Translations under genes and position numbers: made by a program
Source of the DNA: Phycisphaera mikurensis NBRC 102666
GTDB taxonomy: Bacteria; Planctomycetota; Phycisphaerae; Phycisphaerales; Phycisphaeraceae
NCBI RefSeq assembly: GCF_000284115.1
Contig: NC_017080.1
Coordinates: 2,970,001-3,002,000, forward strand
Direction of reading: 5' to 3'
Length of the DNA: 32,000 bases
Shown: one piece after another, positions 4,360-28,136 of the stretch
Layout of the letters: every line of letters begins with the position of its first letter
How positions within the stretch are numbered: position 1 is the first letter of the stretch
The notes under the pieces: model-generated
Told to the model about the DNA's origin: nothing
Databases searched by the model: none
Seen by the model: the letters and a program-made list of their open reading frames with translations, nothing else

Positions 4360-5361
4360 ATGCCGCACCTCTCCCGCCGCACCGCGATCGCCGCCGCCCC
4401 GTTCGCCGCGCTCGCGGCCGCCGGTCTGGGGCGGGTCGCCGGCGCCCAGGAAGCCGCCGCCCCGCTGCCGCCGACGGGAAACGCCGGCGTGTACCGCACC
4501 GGCGTCGGCGCGTGGGACGTCGCCGTCGTCAGCGACGGCCACTTCTTCTTCGACCCGATGCACCCGACGCTCGGCGGCAACGTCGGCGCCGCGGCGTTCG
4601 CCGCCGCCGTCGAGGCGGCCGCCATGCCGGCGGACGGCCTCGCCCACGTCAACGCGCTGCTGGCACGCAAGGGCGACCGCGTCGTGCTCGTCGACGCGGG
4701 CGGCGGCGATGCCTTCGCGCCGACCACCGGCCGGCTGATCGCCAATCTCGCCACGCTGGGCGTCGAGCCGGCGGCCGTGACCGACGTCCTGCTGACCCAC
4801 GCGCACCCCGATCACGCCGGCGGGCTGATGCTGCCCGGCCGGGACCGCCAGCCGGCCTTCGCCAACGCCACCGTCCACGTGACCGAGGCGGAGCACGCCT
4901 TCTGGCGGAGCGGCCCGGCGCTGGCGCAGTCCGGCGTGCCCGAGGAGATGAAGGCGGCGGTGGTGAAGACGGCCAACGACGCGCTCGACACCGCCGGCGA
5001 GCGGCTCGCGATGGTGACCGACGGGGCCGAGCCGGTGGAAGGCTTCACCTCGGTGGCCTGCCCCGGCCACACGCCGGGGCACTGCGGCTACCTGCTCAGC
5101 GACGGCGACGCGACGCTGTACTTCACCGGCGACACGATCTTCTTCGCCCCCGTTCTGACCTCCCACCCCGGCTGGCACGTGGCCTTCGACACCGATCCGG
5201 CGGAGGCGGCGGCGACCCGCTTCCGCGAGATGGACCGGATCGCGAACGAGCGGCTGCGGATCGCTTCGCCGCACCTGCCGTTCCCGGCGCTTGCGCAGCT
5301 GCGGGAGGACGGGGCGGGCGGGTTCCGGTTCCTGGCCGAGCCCTGGCGCTTCGAGGCCTGA
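4360..5361 (+). CDS. Tat-exported MBL-fold metallo-hydrolase (beta-lactamase-like/lactonase-like)
   Basis: The N-terminus MPHLSRRTAIAAAPFAALAAAGLG carries a twin-arginine signal (SRRxAI plus a hydrophobic region). The HxHxDH zinc motif occurs in LLTHAHPDHAGGL, with later CPGHTPGH and GDTIFF blocks. Confidence 0.85.
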   Translation: MPHLSRRTAIAAAPFAALAAAGLGRVAGAQEAAAPLPPTGNAGVYRTGVGAWDVAVVSDGHFFFDPMHPTLGGNVGAAAFAAAVEAAAMPADGLAHVNALLARKGDRVVLVDAGGGDAFAPTTGRLIANLATLGVEPAAVTDVLLTHAHPDHAGGLMLPGRDRQPAFANATVHVTEAEHAFWRSGPALAQSGVPEEMKAAVVKTANDALDTAGERLAMVTDGAEPVEGFTSVACPGHTPGHCGYLLSDGDATLYFTGDTIFFAPVLTSHPGWHVAFDTDPAEAAATRFREMDRIANERLRIASPHLPFPALAQLREDGAGGFRFLAEPWRFEA

Positions 5362-5462
5362 GCCGGAGCGGTCGAGCGTCGCGTCGGGCCCCCGAGCCAC
5401 GTCCTCGGGAGGGTCGAGGCCGTGGCTCGGGAGAGAGCGGGGGCCGGATCCGAGGTGAGGCT

Positions 5463-9964: not shown

Positions 9965-10372
9965 TCAGGCCGCGGCCGCCAGCGGCGCGGCGAACCGGAA
10001 GCCGATCTCGAAGCAGACCTCGGCGCCCTCGCCGACCTGGCCGATCCGGCGGCACCAGGCGACGTTCGCGGGCGCGACGAAGCCGCGGCCGTCGTCGAGC
10101 TGCATCGCCAGCGTCACCGGCTCGCCGGTGTTCAACGCCTCGTTGTGCAGGACCGACACGCCGCCGCGGCCGGAGTTGCGGGTCATCACCTCGTGCACGG
10201 CGTGGCCGCCCGCACCGTCGGCCACGCGGAGCATGCAGGGGCGCTGCCGGTCGCTGCGTGGGACGTCGCGCGGGACGCCGCCGCGGTCGGCGGCGGTCCG
10301 CTCGCCGAGCAGCGCTTGCTCGTGGCTGATCCGCTGCAGAGCCTCGGTCCAGTCGCTTTCTTGGAGTCTCAT
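9965..10372 (-). CDS. PilZ-like domain protein (putative c-di-GMP receptor), paralogue 1
   Basis: 135 aa. It has RDVPRSDRQRP (RxxxR-type arginine cluster) followed by ...VMTRNSGRGGVSVL, which aligns to the PilZ (D/N)hSxxG block with Gly in place of Ser. GGAGGGGG lies 5' of the ATG. It is a paralogue of 10712-11230 (shared MRxxxSDxxW...RI N-terminus and beta-barrel pattern). Confidence 0.55.
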   Translation of the reverse strand: MRLQESDWTEALQRISHEQALLGERTAADRGGVPRDVPRSDRQRPCMLRVADGAGGHAVHEVMTRNSGRGGVSVLHNEALNTGEPVTLAMQLDDGRGFVAPANVAWCRRIGQVGEGAEVCFEIGFRFAAPLAAAA

Positions 10373-10411
10373 GCCCCCTCCATCGGCTCAAGGAGCCTCG
10401 CTCTGTGGCAT

Positions 10412-10748
10412 TCAGGCGGCGATGGGGCCGATGTTCACCGGCGCATCGGACTGTTTCTCGGGTGCGGCGAGCCGCACCGGCCTCCCCTGCGGGATCGGCC
10501 ACAGCGCGTCCTCAGGCGGCGATGGGGCCGATGTTTACCGGCGCATCGGGCTGTTTCTCGGGTGCGGCGAGCCGCACCGGCCTCCCCTGCGGGATCGGCC
10601 ACAGCGCGTCCTCAGGCGGCGATGGGGCCGATATTCACCGGCGCATCGGGCTGTTTCTCGGGTGCGGCGAGCCGCACCGGCCTCCCCTGCGGGATCGGCC
10701 ACAGCGCGTCCTCAGGCGGCGATGGGGCCGATGTTCACCGGCGCATCG
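10412..10748. repeat. tandem 100-bp repeat: three complete intergenic units plus the founding copy formed by the 3' end of the PilZ-like gene
   Basis: TCAGGCGGCGATGGGGCCGAT starts at 10412, 10512, 10612 and 10712. The three full units differ at only 3 positions. The first 37 nt of each unit equal the last 11 codons plus stop codon of CDS 10712-11230. The remaining 63 nt contain the hairpin GGTGCGGC-GA-GCCGCACC. Confidence 0.95.
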
Positions 10749-11230
10749 AATTGGACGCCCACGTCGAAGAGTTCGGGGTCGCGGTCGGTGACGTCCAGGC
10801 CGCGGCACCAGACGACGCGGCCGCTGAGCACCCAGCCCAAGCCGGAACCGTCGTCGGGCTCGAGCACGGCGGTGCAGGGCGTCCCCGGCCGCACGTGGCT
10901 GCCGTGGACGAAGCCGATGCCGCCTTCGCCGACGTTGCGGGTGCGGACGACGAAGGTGCCGTGCGCGTCGTCGTCGTGGCCGCTCTGGGCCGTCAGGCGG
11001 ATCATGCAGCGGAAGTCGCCGGCGATGCGGGCGTGGCTGCGGGCTCCGGTCGCCGGGGTCATCCGCTCGGCGTAGCTGCCGAGCGACTCGGTGCTGGCGC
11101 GGGTGATCCGCTCGAGCATCTGACGCCACTGCAGGTCGGAGACCCAGATCCGCATCGTGTCGACGCCGGCGCCGCCGGTGTCGAGATCGGCGTCGACGGT
11201 GCGGGTGGGGGCGGTCGAGATCTGCAACAT
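10712..11230 (-). CDS. PilZ-like domain protein (putative c-di-GMP receptor), paralogue 2
   Basis: The start MLQISTAPT... at ATG 11230 is preceded by AAGGAG 6 nt upstream (the track ORF extends to 11422). It has RSHAR (RxxxR) and, 31 aa later, RTRNVGEGGIGFV (the (D/N)hSxxG-like block with S replaced by G). The C-terminus is ...VGVQFDAPVNIGPIAA. Confidence 0.6.
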   Translation of the reverse strand: MLQISTAPTRTVDADLDTGGAGVDTMRIWVSDLQWRQMLERITRASTESLGSYAERMTPATGARSHARIAGDFRCMIRLTAQSGHDDDAHGTFVVRTRNVGEGGIGFVHGSHVRPGTPCTAVLEPDDGSGLGWVLSGRVVWCRGLDVTDRDPELFDVGVQFDAPVNIGPIAA

Positions 11231-11458: not shown

Positions 11459-11480
11459 CCCCCCCCCCCCCCCGCCCCCC
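11459..11480. repeat. homopolymer tract C15-G-C6 (G6-C-G15 on the minus strand)
   Basis: Read directly: 15 consecutive C (11459-11473), one G, then 6 C (11475-11480). It lies 8 nt downstream of the stop of the minus-strand PEP-CTERM gene and about 230 nt upstream of the PilZ-like paralogue 2 start. Confidence 0.9.
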
Positions 11481-11488
11481 GCGTGCCC

Positions 11489-12232
11489 TCAGGCCCGGCG
11501 GCGGCGGGCGGCGAGGCCGGCGAGGACGACCAGCCCCGCGCCGGCGGCGGCCGGGGTCGGCACGACGGCGGCCTCGGTCGTCACGACCTCGTCGACGACC
11601 CCCGAGCCGCCGAGGGCGACGATGGCGGAGTCGAAGGAGGCGGCGCCGGCGAGCTCGGCCGAGAAGGCCGCGATGCGGTTCGCGGTGTTGTTGCCGAAGG
11701 CCACCGACGGGTCGAAGTGGGCCGAGCCGGGGGTCACCAGGTCGGCGAAATCGACGCGGAGGACCTCCTCCCCGCCGGAGAAGGCGGCGACGAAGTAGCC
11801 GGTGTCGGTGGTGAACTCGGAGGGTCCCTCGACGTCAACCACGGTGAAGCCGAAGGCGCCGATGGGCTCGGCGAAGTCGAAGCGCAGGTGCCCGGCCGGG
11901 CGGCGGAACTCCAGGATCCGGAAGGCGTCGGGGCCCTGGATCGCGATCCCGTTGCCGAGGTCGGTGCCCGCGGCGACGTTGCCGCCGCCGTCGAAGGGCG
12001 CCTGCTGGCCGCCGTAGGCGAGCTCGGGATGGCCGTCGAAGTCGTAGGCGACGGCGCTGCCGGGGGCGTCGTCGCTGGCGTTGAAGGCGGTGACGGTGAC
12101 GCCGCCGCCGAGATCGGACAGCGACGACCCGGCTTCGATGTCGTCGAAGTCGATGGTCGCGGCGGCGGCCGGGAGGCCGGCCACGGCCGGGAGGGCGAGG
12201 GCGGCGAGGAGCGCGGGGGCGGGGCGGGGCAT
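11489..12232 (-). CDS. PEP-CTERM-type sorting-domain secreted protein
   Basis: The signal peptide is MPRPAPALLAALALPAVAGLPAAAA, from the internal ATG at 12232. The mature N-terminus ATIDFDD is typical of PEP-CTERM proteins. The C-terminus VPTPAAAGAGLVVLAGLAARRRRA combines a Pro-x-Pro motif, a TM helix and an Arg cluster. Confidence 0.75.
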   Translation of the reverse strand: MPRPAPALLAALALPAVAGLPAAAATIDFDDIEAGSSLSDLGGGVTVTAFNASDDAPGSAVAYDFDGHPELAYGGQQAPFDGGGNVAAGTDLGNGIAIQGPDAFRILEFRRPAGHLRFDFAEPIGAFGFTVVDVEGPSEFTTDTGYFVAAFSGGEEVLRVDFADLVTPGSAHFDPSVAFGNNTANRIAAFSAELAGAASFDSAIVALGGSGVVDEVVTTEAAVVPTPAAAGAGLVVLAGLAARRRRA

Positions 12233-12373
12233 GCAGGATTCCGGGGGTGGGAGACGCGGGCGAGAGCGGCGGCCAGGTTGCCGCGTGTTCATCGCCCCGC
12301 CCCGCCCCCGCGGGGAACCTCCGAGCCCGCTGAGCGTTATCGGACGCCCGCCGCCGGCCGCCGGCTGGTTTTC

Positions 12374-27035: not shown

Positions 27036-28136
27036 CTAACGCCGCCGGTGCCCCCCGTACCCCGCCTCACGCTCCCGCCGCTGGATGGCCTCGATGCCGT
27101 AGCGAGCCCAGGGCTTGATCTCCAGCCGCGGGAGGCCGATCGGTGTGCAGGTGTCCAGGCAGACGCCGTAGGTGCCGTCGTCGATGCGGACCAGCGCGGC
27201 GTCGATGTCCTTCAGCAGCTTGCGGTCGGTCTCCTGCAGCATGAGGTTGAACTCGCGCTCGTAGTTCTCGCTGCCCACGTCGGCCATGTGCAGCGGCACG
27301 TGGCTGTCGCCGTCGTCGTGGCCCCGGGCGGCGTCGAGCCCGGCAACGTCGCCGACCAGCGCCCGCCGGTGCTCGAGCAGCTGCTCCCGGAACGCCATGA
27401 GCCGCTTCTTGGAGATGCCGGTCTTCACCTTTCGCAGCTGCTCGGGGGTGTGCTCGCTGGCGGCACGGTCGACCGAACCGGGGCGGGTGTCGTCCGAGGG
27501 AGCGGGCTTGGGCGCGTCGCCTGCCCGCGCCGAAGCGGCCCGGCGGCCGACGGGCACCTTGTACTTCTTGAGCTCCAACGCTTTCTTCCGCTTCACCGGC
27601 TTGGTGACGGCGGTCGGGTTGAACTTGCTGCTCTTGCGGCGGGGCGTGCCGTCGGCGGCCTCCTCGGCGGGTGGGGGAGGCTTGCGACGCTTCGCCTCGT
27701 TGATTTCCAGCGGGCGCCGGCGGGTGGGCTTCTTCTTCGTTCCGGGAGCGGCGGGGAGCGTGGCCTCCACCTTCGCGGGCGTCGCCTTCTTCACGGACGG
27801 CTTCTTCGCGGCCGGCTTCTTCGCGGCCGGCTTCTTCGCGGCCGGCTTCTTCGCGGCCGGCTTCTTCGTGGTCGGCTTCTTTGCGACCGGCTTCTTTGCA
27901 GGAGCCTCCTTCGCGGGAGCCTTCTTCGACGACTTCTTCGCCGGGGGCTTCTTCGCCGGGGTGTCGGCGGTCGACGCACGCCCGCCCGTGGCCCCCGCCT
28001 TGGCCGGCCCGGCCGGAGCTTTCTTCTTCGCGACGGCTTTCTTCACCGGCGGCTTCTTGGCCGCCGCCTTCTTCGCGGGCGGCTTCTTCGCCGCCGGCTT
28101 CTTCTTCTCACCGGCTTTGGAGGGCTTGCTCGCCAA
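27036..28136 (-). CDS. DksA/TraR-family protein with a long N-terminal histone-H1/AlgP-like Lys-Ala-Pro repeat domain
   Basis: A TTG start at 28136 has AGGAAG 7 nt upstream. Roughly aa 1-230 are K/A/P-rich (AKKPAAKKPAAKKPAAKKPAAKKPSVKK...). The C-terminus ...FREQLLEHRRALVGDV...HMADVGSENYEREFNLMLQETDRKLLKDIDAALVRIDDGTYGVCLDTCTPIGLPRLEIKPWARYGIEAIQ aligns without gaps to E. coli DksA (recalled sequence ...[68 protein letters not shown]). Confidence 0.75.
   Translation of the reverse strand: MASKPSKAGEKKKPAAKKPPAKKAAAKKPPVKKAVAKKKAPAGPAKAGATGGRASTADTPAKKPPAKKSSKKAPAKEAPAKKPVAKKPTTKKPAAKKPAAKKPAAKKPAAKKPSVKKATPAKVEATLPAAPGTKKKPTRRRPLEINEAKRRKPPPPAEEAADGTPRRKSSKFNPTAVTKPVKRKKALELKKYKVPVGRRAASARAGDAPKPAPSDDTRPGSVDRAASEHTPEQLRKVKTGISKKRLMAFREQLLEHRRALVGDVAGLDAARGHDDGDSHVPLHMADVGSENYEREFNLMLQETDRKLLKDIDAALVRIDDGTYGVCLDTCTPIGLPRLEIKPWARYGIEAIQRREREAGYGGHRRR
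27798..27902. repeat. in-frame 15-bp tandem repeat x7 encoding (KKPAA)n within the DksA-like gene
   Basis: CGGCTTCTTCGCGGC occurs four times exactly (27798-27857), followed by three diverged copies (CGGCTTCTTCGTGGT, CGGCTTCTTTGCGAC, CGGCTTCTTTGCAGG). Confidence 0.9.

Follow-up and report, generated by a model that had tools for sequence, protein, structure and literature searches.

Repetitive extragenic palindromic (REP) sequences and bacterial interspersed mosaic elements (BIMEs) stabilise the upstream mRNA, attenuate transcription or, when near a stop codon, affect the termination of translation. Mycobacterial interspersed repetitive units (MIRUs) are described as inserting at start codons and as having an internal open reading frame (ORF) that is coupled at -4 nt (PMC12548453). 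Most prokaryotic satellites with long non-coding repeats are unique to one locus and have been attributed to replication anomalies (PMC6749651). Here, we describe a tandem array found in a 32-kb stretch of the Phycisphaera mikurensis chromosome (73% G+C; hereafter the window), which lies between two PilZ genes and repeats the end of the first of them. Its copies stand head to tail with high identity and a period above 10 bp, and the repeat does not code for protein, as in a minisatellite or variable number tandem repeat (VNTR) locus.

On balance, sequence comparison and a predicted fold lead us to favour a non-coding intercistronic minisatellite, in which a structured 63-nt module of the 3′-untranslated region (3′-UTR) type, called B below, is joined to a passenger gene tail, called A, and in which B would act as RNA in cis.

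Anatomy of the array between PilZ2 and PilZ1

Both PilZ genes are encoded on the minus strand of the window, which is the mRNA (PilZ-sense) strand throughout. The upstream cistron, PilZ2 (10712-11230, minus strand, 172 aa), matches the Pfam PilZ domain (PF07238) with an E-value of 9.5e-6, above the gathering score, and its protein is identical throughout (100%) to one listed at NCBI as "PilZ domain-containing protein [Phycisphaera mikurensis]". The downstream cistron, PilZ1 (9965-10372, minus strand, 135 aa), gave no Pfam match and is 31% identical to PilZ2 (E-value of 2e-15). With an identity of just 31%, the paralogue pair must be old.

Tandem Repeats Finder (TRF) placed the array at 10412-10748, with a period of 100, 3.4 copies, 97% matches and no indels, and a repeat search recovered three 137-nt copies at a spacing of 100 (97-98% identity). 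By alignment, 37 nt (CGATGCGCCGGTGAACATCGGCCCCATCGCCGCCTGA on the minus strand) are common to the end of the PilZ2 coding sequence (CDS) at 10712-10748 and to all three intergenic units. Read along the minus strand, the order is the PilZ2 tail A (37 nt including the TGA), three repetitions of B (63 nt) plus A (37 nt), a spacer of 39 nt that holds a Shine-Dalgarno (SD) sequence, and PilZ1. The initial annotation of this DNA, in which three units were said to copy the last 37 nt and the stop codon of a PilZ-like gene and to lie between it and a paralogue, was borne out by TRF, alignment and Pfam.

All elements of the array lie on the minus strand. The gene's own final 37 nt (A0, 10712-10748), the source of the copies, read C GAT GCG CCG GTG AAC ATC GGC CCC ATC GCC GCC TGA and encode …DAPVNIGPIAA followed by the stop. 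Directly after this stop stands B1 (10649-10711), a non-coding module with a closing stem, GCUGU/ACAGC, and two hairpins, H1 and H2. The first tail copy, A1 (10612-10648), is 36/37 identical to the gene (AAC>AAT), B2 (10549-10611) is the same as B1, and A2 (10512-10548) is again 36/37 identical (GTG>GTA). B3 (10449-10511) has one change, CAGCC>CAGTC, located at its 3′ end on the border between B and A, where a G-C pair of the closing stem becomes G-U. No further substitution is found in the array, and the two in the tail copies are both silent in the PilZ frame. The distal copy, A3 (10412-10448), matches the gene tail at 37/37 positions, with its TGA exactly at the array border. A hairpin, GGTGCGGC-GA-GCCGCACC, occurs once per unit, giving six matches over both strands against 0.68 expected; it had been described as an 8-bp hairpin and physically consists of a 7-bp stem closed by a loop of 4 nt.

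The final tail copy stops at 10412 and PilZ1 begins at 10372, leaving a unique spacer of 39 nt (10373-10411, minus strand), the distance given in the initial annotation. The spacer holds the SD sequence GGAGGGGG (10374-10381) ahead of the PilZ1 ATG. At its 5′ end, 2 nt past the last TGA, GCCACAGAGCG forms a 10/11 inverted repeat with CGCGCTGTGGC, which is found at the 5′ end of B (10699-10709) and at the same position in every B, 3 nt past each TGA. A match of this quality was reached anywhere by only 2.4% of shuffles; it may be due to chance, be left over from the event that founded the array, or reflect long-range RNA pairing by which the array is looped out. Right after the last TGA, the spacer also begins with an ATG that starts a 7-codon ORF (MPQSEAP*), which shares its frame with the PilZ1 ATG.

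A second NCBI assembly, GCA_014207395.1 (L020), probably of the same strain, contains the array base for base, so that an assembly artefact is not its source. Two short-read (Logan) contigs end within the last tail copy.

Conservation and predicted fold of the 63-nt module

Scanning metagenome contigs with a 24-mer from B retrieved a single contig, L007 (ENA ORXU01047886), and an array of the same type is present in L008, an independent metagenome assembly. Both encode a PilZ2 protein, P0002, with 85% amino acid and 86% nucleotide identity to that of P. mikurensis, and in both the gene tail is followed by B and then by a tail copy; L007 runs into further B up to the contig end. The period is 101 and B has 64 nt in these two contigs, versus a period of 100 and a B of 63 nt in P. 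mikurensis. Comparing orthologous loci, as the initial annotation had proposed, thus gave one further lineage with the same architecture and eight lineages without an array.

The tails of the two array lineages differ at five third-codon positions, all synonymous, and the tail copies follow the gene of their own genome. One synonymous difference, GCT versus GCC, separates the L007 tail copy from its own gene. Array copies are 98-100% alike within a genome. Two tail codons, GAT (Asp) and CCC (Pro), are exclusive to the array lineages; the array-less relatives all have CCG.

B itself is strongly similar between the lineages, with 41/41 identical positions at the 5′ end and about five substitutions plus one indel over 63 nt. 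The differences are a 1-nt indel in the loop of hairpin 2, one unpaired G>A, and the last two bases. As a neutral control, the third positions of PilZ2 differ at 45/172 (0.26) between the two array lineages and the whole gene at 14%, while the intergenic DNA upstream of PilZ2 is unalignable. At the synonymous rate (p = 0.26), five or fewer differences in 63 nt have a probability of 2.8e-4. The divergence of B is therefore about a third of that at synonymous sites and does not exceed that of the coding sequence next to it. As B changes more slowly than silent sites, constraint is indicated; whether this amounts to selection on B we judge, from these alignments, to be an evenly balanced question.

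On the PilZ-sense strand, B is predicted to fold into a Y shape. The closing stem (GCUGU/ACAGC) starts 6 nt past the stop codon and encloses H1 (GGCC-GA-UCCC/GGGA-GGCC) and H2 (GGUGCGG/CCGCACC). The minimum free energy is -32 kcal/mol, this structure makes up 57% of the ensemble, and the z-score is -1.8 in P. mikurensis and -2.7 in L008. Among the four distinct B sequences, every one of the 20 pairs stays standard. The three stem substitutions are all C>U changes that produce G-U pairs on the PilZ-sense strand, where the other strand would get A-C mismatches, and every change outside the stems falls in a loop or at an unpaired position.

A canonical intrinsic (Rho-independent) terminator was considered and rejected, since the GC-rich hairpin is present but no U-tract is found on the mRNA strand. 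Terminator-like sites were returned by the consensus scan on the opposite (plus) strand only, where they consist of the A hairpin plus CTGTTTCTC. Rfam searches of 10300-10850 at permissive thresholds gave only chance-level matches (E > 4).

Origin of the array and competing explanations

Only about ten database relatives of PilZ2 were found (77-85% amino acid identity), all of them from uncultured Phycisphaera-like organisms. The locus was read in eight lineages (L001, L002, L003, L006, L009, L010-L017, L019, and L018 in part). The gene order in these is PilZ2, PilZ1 and then a convergent short-chain dehydrogenase. The spacers between PilZ2 and PilZ1 measure 20, ~70, 26, 23, 45, 85 and 33 nt, and nothing B-like was found in them. 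L018 and L019, which have PilZ1 homologues on short contigs, were also checked for the distal array end of the second lineage, and neither is array-bearing. Units number zero in the eight lineages, three in P. mikurensis and at least two in L007, whose contig is cut short.

Judging from these loci, the ancestral arrangement is the PilZ2 tail with its TGA, a spacer of 20-85 nt and PilZ1, and the array is a late insertion, limited to certain lineages, into a compact operon of two PilZ genes. The pair is old and present throughout the relatives and the array is restricted, so the array is late and not ancestral to the duplication of the paralogues. The opposite had been proposed in the initial annotation, where a resemblance to CACCCGAGA downstream of PilZ1 was taken as a sign that the unit is older than the gene duplication. 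That resemblance is at chance level, B has no above-chance match elsewhere in the window, and the old paralogues are adjacent in all relatives, separated by 20-85 nt without B.

In the explanation that we favour, a founding A-B-A would have arisen once, through a 100-bp duplication that started in the gene tail, after which the distal tail would have recombined with an array-less allele; an insertion that duplicates its target would be an alternative founding event. Copy number would then change by unequal homologous recombination between units, and gene conversion would hold the tail copies to the selected gene tail, a form of concerted evolution that would keep their changes "synonymous". 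Precise loss through recombination between A copies may account for the patchy distribution. B would act in cis as PilZ-sense RNA, presenting a Y fold 6 nt past the stop and nine hairpins over 300 nt, most likely as a terminator that lacks a U-tract, as an attenuator or as a protector of the PilZ2 3′ end, and would uncouple the expression of PilZ1 from that of PilZ2. The SD GGAGGGGG of PilZ1, strong in P. mikurensis and without a comparable counterpart in most array-less relatives (20-45 nt spacers, read by eye), would agree with independent expression of PilZ1. The tail copies would not be translated. An attenuator or stabiliser role specifically is a tentative suggestion of the modelled fold.

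Several observations weigh against this explanation. The divergence of B is not significantly below the whole-CDS rate (P = 0.11 at p = 0.14). Its carriers number just two lineages, whose sister relationship finds no support because the neighbour-joining trees of PilZ2 are star-like; phylogeny therefore settles neither the sisterhood of the array lineages nor a single versus an independent origin. The fold z-scores are modest, and B has no two-sided compensatory changes, so that the data fit the RNA structure but do not prove it. No Rfam family matched the window at gathering thresholds. On the mRNA strand, the hairpins are followed by CGAGAAACAG and not by a U-tract, and no promoter or terminator consensus was found. 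Eight relatives manage without B, so any function of B is dispensable. Finally, the A-(B-A)n-spacer topology, with n+1 tails of which the last adjoins an ancestral-type spacer, goes beyond a single simple duplication and requires a second event.

The best-surviving rival, which we consider somewhat doubtful, is a young minisatellite without function, born of slippage or unequal crossover, in which B is whatever followed the stop and resembles its counterpart by luck or through slow local evolution. The identity within genomes (97-100%), the lack of the array in most relatives and the attribution of single-locus prokaryotic satellites to replication anomalies (PMC6749651) all speak for it. It has to accommodate the same B, identical over 41/41 positions at the 5′ end, and the same architecture in lineages whose PilZ2 genes have diverged by 14% of nucleotides and 26% of third positions and whose flank is unalignable. 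Moreover, perfect direct repeats of 37-42 nt should allow easy loss, yet the array persists in two lineages.

A neutral origin is also favoured by the frequency of unrelated long-period arrays in these genomes, where amplification is visible. The window contains a non-coding array at 1734-2430 (106 bp x6.5, 93% matches), which can also be read with a higher-order period of 320 bp. It lies between convergent genes, with 2 nt separating its end from the mnmG stop (TCA, 2433-2435). Every unit includes a pair of GC hairpins, GAGCGGCGACGCCGCTC and GCGTGGCGTCGCCACGC, and perhaps also, in degenerate form, the last ~11 nt of mnmG with the stop position. The 6.5-kb loci of the relatives, scanned by TRF, contributed two further long-period arrays. 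In L003, a 112-nt x7.5 array (1105-1986, with a 225-nt higher order) starts 3 nt past the stop of a FAD/4Fe-4S oxidoreductase gene, and its sister L002 (PilZ2 91% identical in nucleotides) has in the orthologous place a single copy (1865-1973, 94% identical), flanked by the direct repeats ATCCGC(TGA)GGACC and ATCCGCGGACC. Side by side, the two clearly show the state before and after an array is born by ordinary amplification. The other array, 188 nt x~3 in L002 (4809-~5365), fills the spacer from the stop of an SSF-transporter gene to the start of a dehydrogenase gene; L003 has two diverged copies of it at 5065-5418 (87% and 75%), and the unit contains short repeats of the CGGATGGAT type in inverted orientation.

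Four long-period arrays were thus found in the ~90 kb examined, three of which start within 0-3 nt of a stop. Hairpin-rich sequences right after stops are repeatedly amplified in Phycisphaera, plausibly by a shared generating process, which looks like ordinary duplication and unequal recombination. With short spacers, a harmless duplication of ~100 bp will often have its left end inside the tail of the upstream gene. The likeness to the mnmG array that had been pointed out initially holds for the architecture (adjacent to a stop, a period that is no multiple of 3, hairpins) and does not extend to the sequence, as the 106-bp and 100-bp units share no similarity; the shared mechanism proposed with it gains plausibility from the two other stop-adjacent arrays in relatives, in the form of this ordinary process. 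The seemingly high number of long-period arrays next to stops suggests a genus-wide bias in how intergenic DNA is made.

Other repeats were noted in the window. A homopolymeric tract, G6-C-G15 on the PilZ-sense strand (11459-11480), is a candidate hypermutable or slippage-prone site; it begins ~8 nt past the stop of a gene for a protein of 267 aa (11489-12292, minus strand), and PilZ2 starts ~230 nt downstream of it. The ORF at 27036-28136 (minus strand) contains a 15-nt coding repeat, CTTCTTCGCGGCCGG, which encodes PAAKK and occupies 27786-27956 and 28023-28104. Its protein has a Lys/Ala/Pro-rich N-terminal region formed by the repeat, and the C-terminus resembles a zinc finger of the DksA/TraR type.

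A bolder form of the explanation that we favour, and in our estimation an unlikely one, makes B a previously undescribed structured RNA that sits directly after stops and regulates the pair of PilZ genes, which encode receptors of cyclic di-GMP (c-di-GMP), perhaps together with a genus-wide seeding of stop-anchored modules. The process that seeds and amplifies hairpin modules in Phycisphaera might then include an insertion that duplicates ~40 nt of its target.

Less probable still is mobility: B would be, or once have been, a small element that moves or integrates site-specifically, targets the 3′ end of PilZ2, duplicates 37-42 nt and has inserted repeatedly and independently in each host. The A-(B-A)n topology would match an element that duplicates its target on insertion or integrates in the Campbell manner. 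It would equally result from an (A-B)n array that recombines in its last tail copy with an array-less allele. B resembles neither PilZ1 nor PilZ2, and it is equally unlike the 39-nt spacer and the 63 coding nt upstream of the tail, which rules out a simple duplication of the last 100 nt of the gene or of the spacer plus the start of PilZ1. Mobility would also fit the A copies, which are host-specific where B is near-identical between hosts. In L007, the gene-proximal B equals that of P. mikurensis and the distal B, with three changes over 38 nt, looks as though it were the older one. Finally, the GAT and CCC codons exclusive to the array lineages create an inverted repeat in the tail, CGATG...CATCG.

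Against mobility, no second copy of B was found. Within the window, mismatch-tolerant and Smith-Waterman searches gave nothing above shuffles, and a covariance model of B run over 92 kb (the window plus 60 kb of the relatives' loci) found no further copy. The 24-mer from hairpin 2 had two chance matches in actinobacterial coding DNA among GTDB genomes, an imperfect negative, as the P. mikurensis array is apparently masked there; public copies of the locus are partly N-masked in the scanned collections (for example L020, 2560-2639), which limits the negatives for P. mikurensis. L007 remained the only metagenome contig with a match, and IMG/VR, the PLSDB plasmids and phages gave none. No transposase or integrase was seen in the neighbourhood, which is partly annotated, and we know of no transposon that makes target duplications as long as 37-42 nt. 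The repeated tail segment of L007 and L008 is 5 nt longer (CAGTT plus the 37 nt, so that A spans 37-42 nt overall), and the P. mikurensis copies have CAGCC or CAGTC at these positions where the gene itself has CAATT. This difference between copies and gene means that the duplication predates changes specific to the P. mikurensis lineage, and from the sequences it would argue for vertical inheritance with concerted evolution over a fresh insertion. Together with the lack of another B copy, it makes the ordinary duplication route more likely than insertion.

The tail copies are very likely untranslated passengers of a non-coding array. Six-frame translation of the array gave no match in any frame among 5.8 billion predicted proteins. 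In P. mikurensis, B holds GGGGAGG-CCG-GTG, which opens a 21-codon ORF (GTG...RLAAPEKQPDAPVNIGPIAA) ending in the tail peptide; the 1-nt loop indel breaks this ORF in L008, and with a B of 63 versus 64 nt the frame that joins B to the next tail is not conserved. The initial annotation had remarked that both tail substitutions are synonymous. They are, and as 11/25 possible G/C transitions in the tail are silent, the pattern lies within chance (P ~0.19 for two changes, 0.085 for the three obtained with the L007 difference); it is also expected from conversion by a gene tail under selection. A selenocysteine insertion sequence (SECIS) or other readthrough signal was considered and rejected. Expression of the tails through stop readthrough, frameshifting, re-initiation at the mini-ORF or recombinational swapping of C-termini, an idea raised for readthrough and swapping in the initial annotation and to which the 3/3 synonymous differences and the mini-ORF lend some colour, is thus most improbable: a readthrough product would be an unconserved Arg-rich extension, and swapping would change nothing, since all tails encode the same 11 residues.

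If B is selected, the locus would offer a compact natural experiment in which three states occur (module absent, single or amplified), and could show how bacteria retune the expression ratio of two neighbouring c-di-GMP receptor genes through insertion and amplification of a 3′-UTR structure. If B is not selected, the array is an ordinary minisatellite, useful mainly as a marker for strain typing and as a warning that short-read assemblies break at it, several contigs ending inside. The locus also illustrates the concerted evolution of a coding gene end with its non-coding copies.

Comparison with described repeat systems

Two known systems can be set aside quickly. In a diversity-generating retroelement, changes would fall at template adenines; the differences here are G>A and C>T and do not, and no reverse transcriptase was seen among the annotated neighbours (the annotation being partial). 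A type III toxin-antitoxin locus was likewise rejected, as the downstream gene is a PilZ paralogue, not of the ToxN/AbiE type, and is repeat-free in eight relatives.

The array is similar in form to clustered regularly interspaced short palindromic repeats (CRISPR): a partly palindromic repeat of 37 nt (A) alternates with other sequence, n+1 repeats are present, and the distal copies are more degenerate. Unlike in CRISPR, the 63-nt "spacers" (B) are alike, and the end of a conserved gene's coding sequence takes the place of the "repeat". With B1 equal to B2, B3 different by 1 nt, and no cas genes seen, a CRISPR array was rejected.

With the REP/BIME elements of E. coli, the array shares GC-rich hairpins placed just past a stop inside an operon, sometimes in tandem. 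REPs are ~35 nt long, occur in hundreds of dispersed copies and are mobilised by REP-associated tyrosine transposases (RAYTs), whereas B has 63 nt, is confined to a single locus and comes with a copied gene tail. This single-locus occurrence also excludes a MITE (miniature inverted-repeat transposable element); the sole inverted repeat is that between the 5′ ends of B and of the spacer (10/11).

Closer in layout are the MIRUs, also tandem units of 40-100 bp between the cistrons of an operon and placed relative to the flanking stop and start codons. Unlike MIRUs, the array was found at a single locus and keeps no common frame between lineages (100 versus 101 nt), and it has no resemblance to them in sequence. 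A MIRU-like element was rejected because B is not dispersed in the window, in the loci of relatives or in the scanned collections (with the masking caveat for GTDB). Coupling of the MIRU type was rejected as well: no ATGA/GTGA overlap occurs at CCTGAGG, and the ORFs of the units are frame-dependent and lost in L008.

The closest class is the bacterial minisatellite or VNTR, which likewise consists of intergenic head-to-tail units of ~100 bp with high identity and a more diverged edge copy. The array is also locus-specific, its period is no multiple of 3, and it was plausibly born by duplication and resized by unequal recombination. It is unlike a typical VNTR in that the unit includes a near-perfect 37-42-nt end of the upstream gene with its stop, that the array ends on such a copy, and that the non-genic part of the unit (B) is conserved between lineages above the level of synonymous sites. 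What is distinctive beyond the known minisatellite class is this conservation of B across lineages, together with a gene end and its non-coding copies in concerted evolution.

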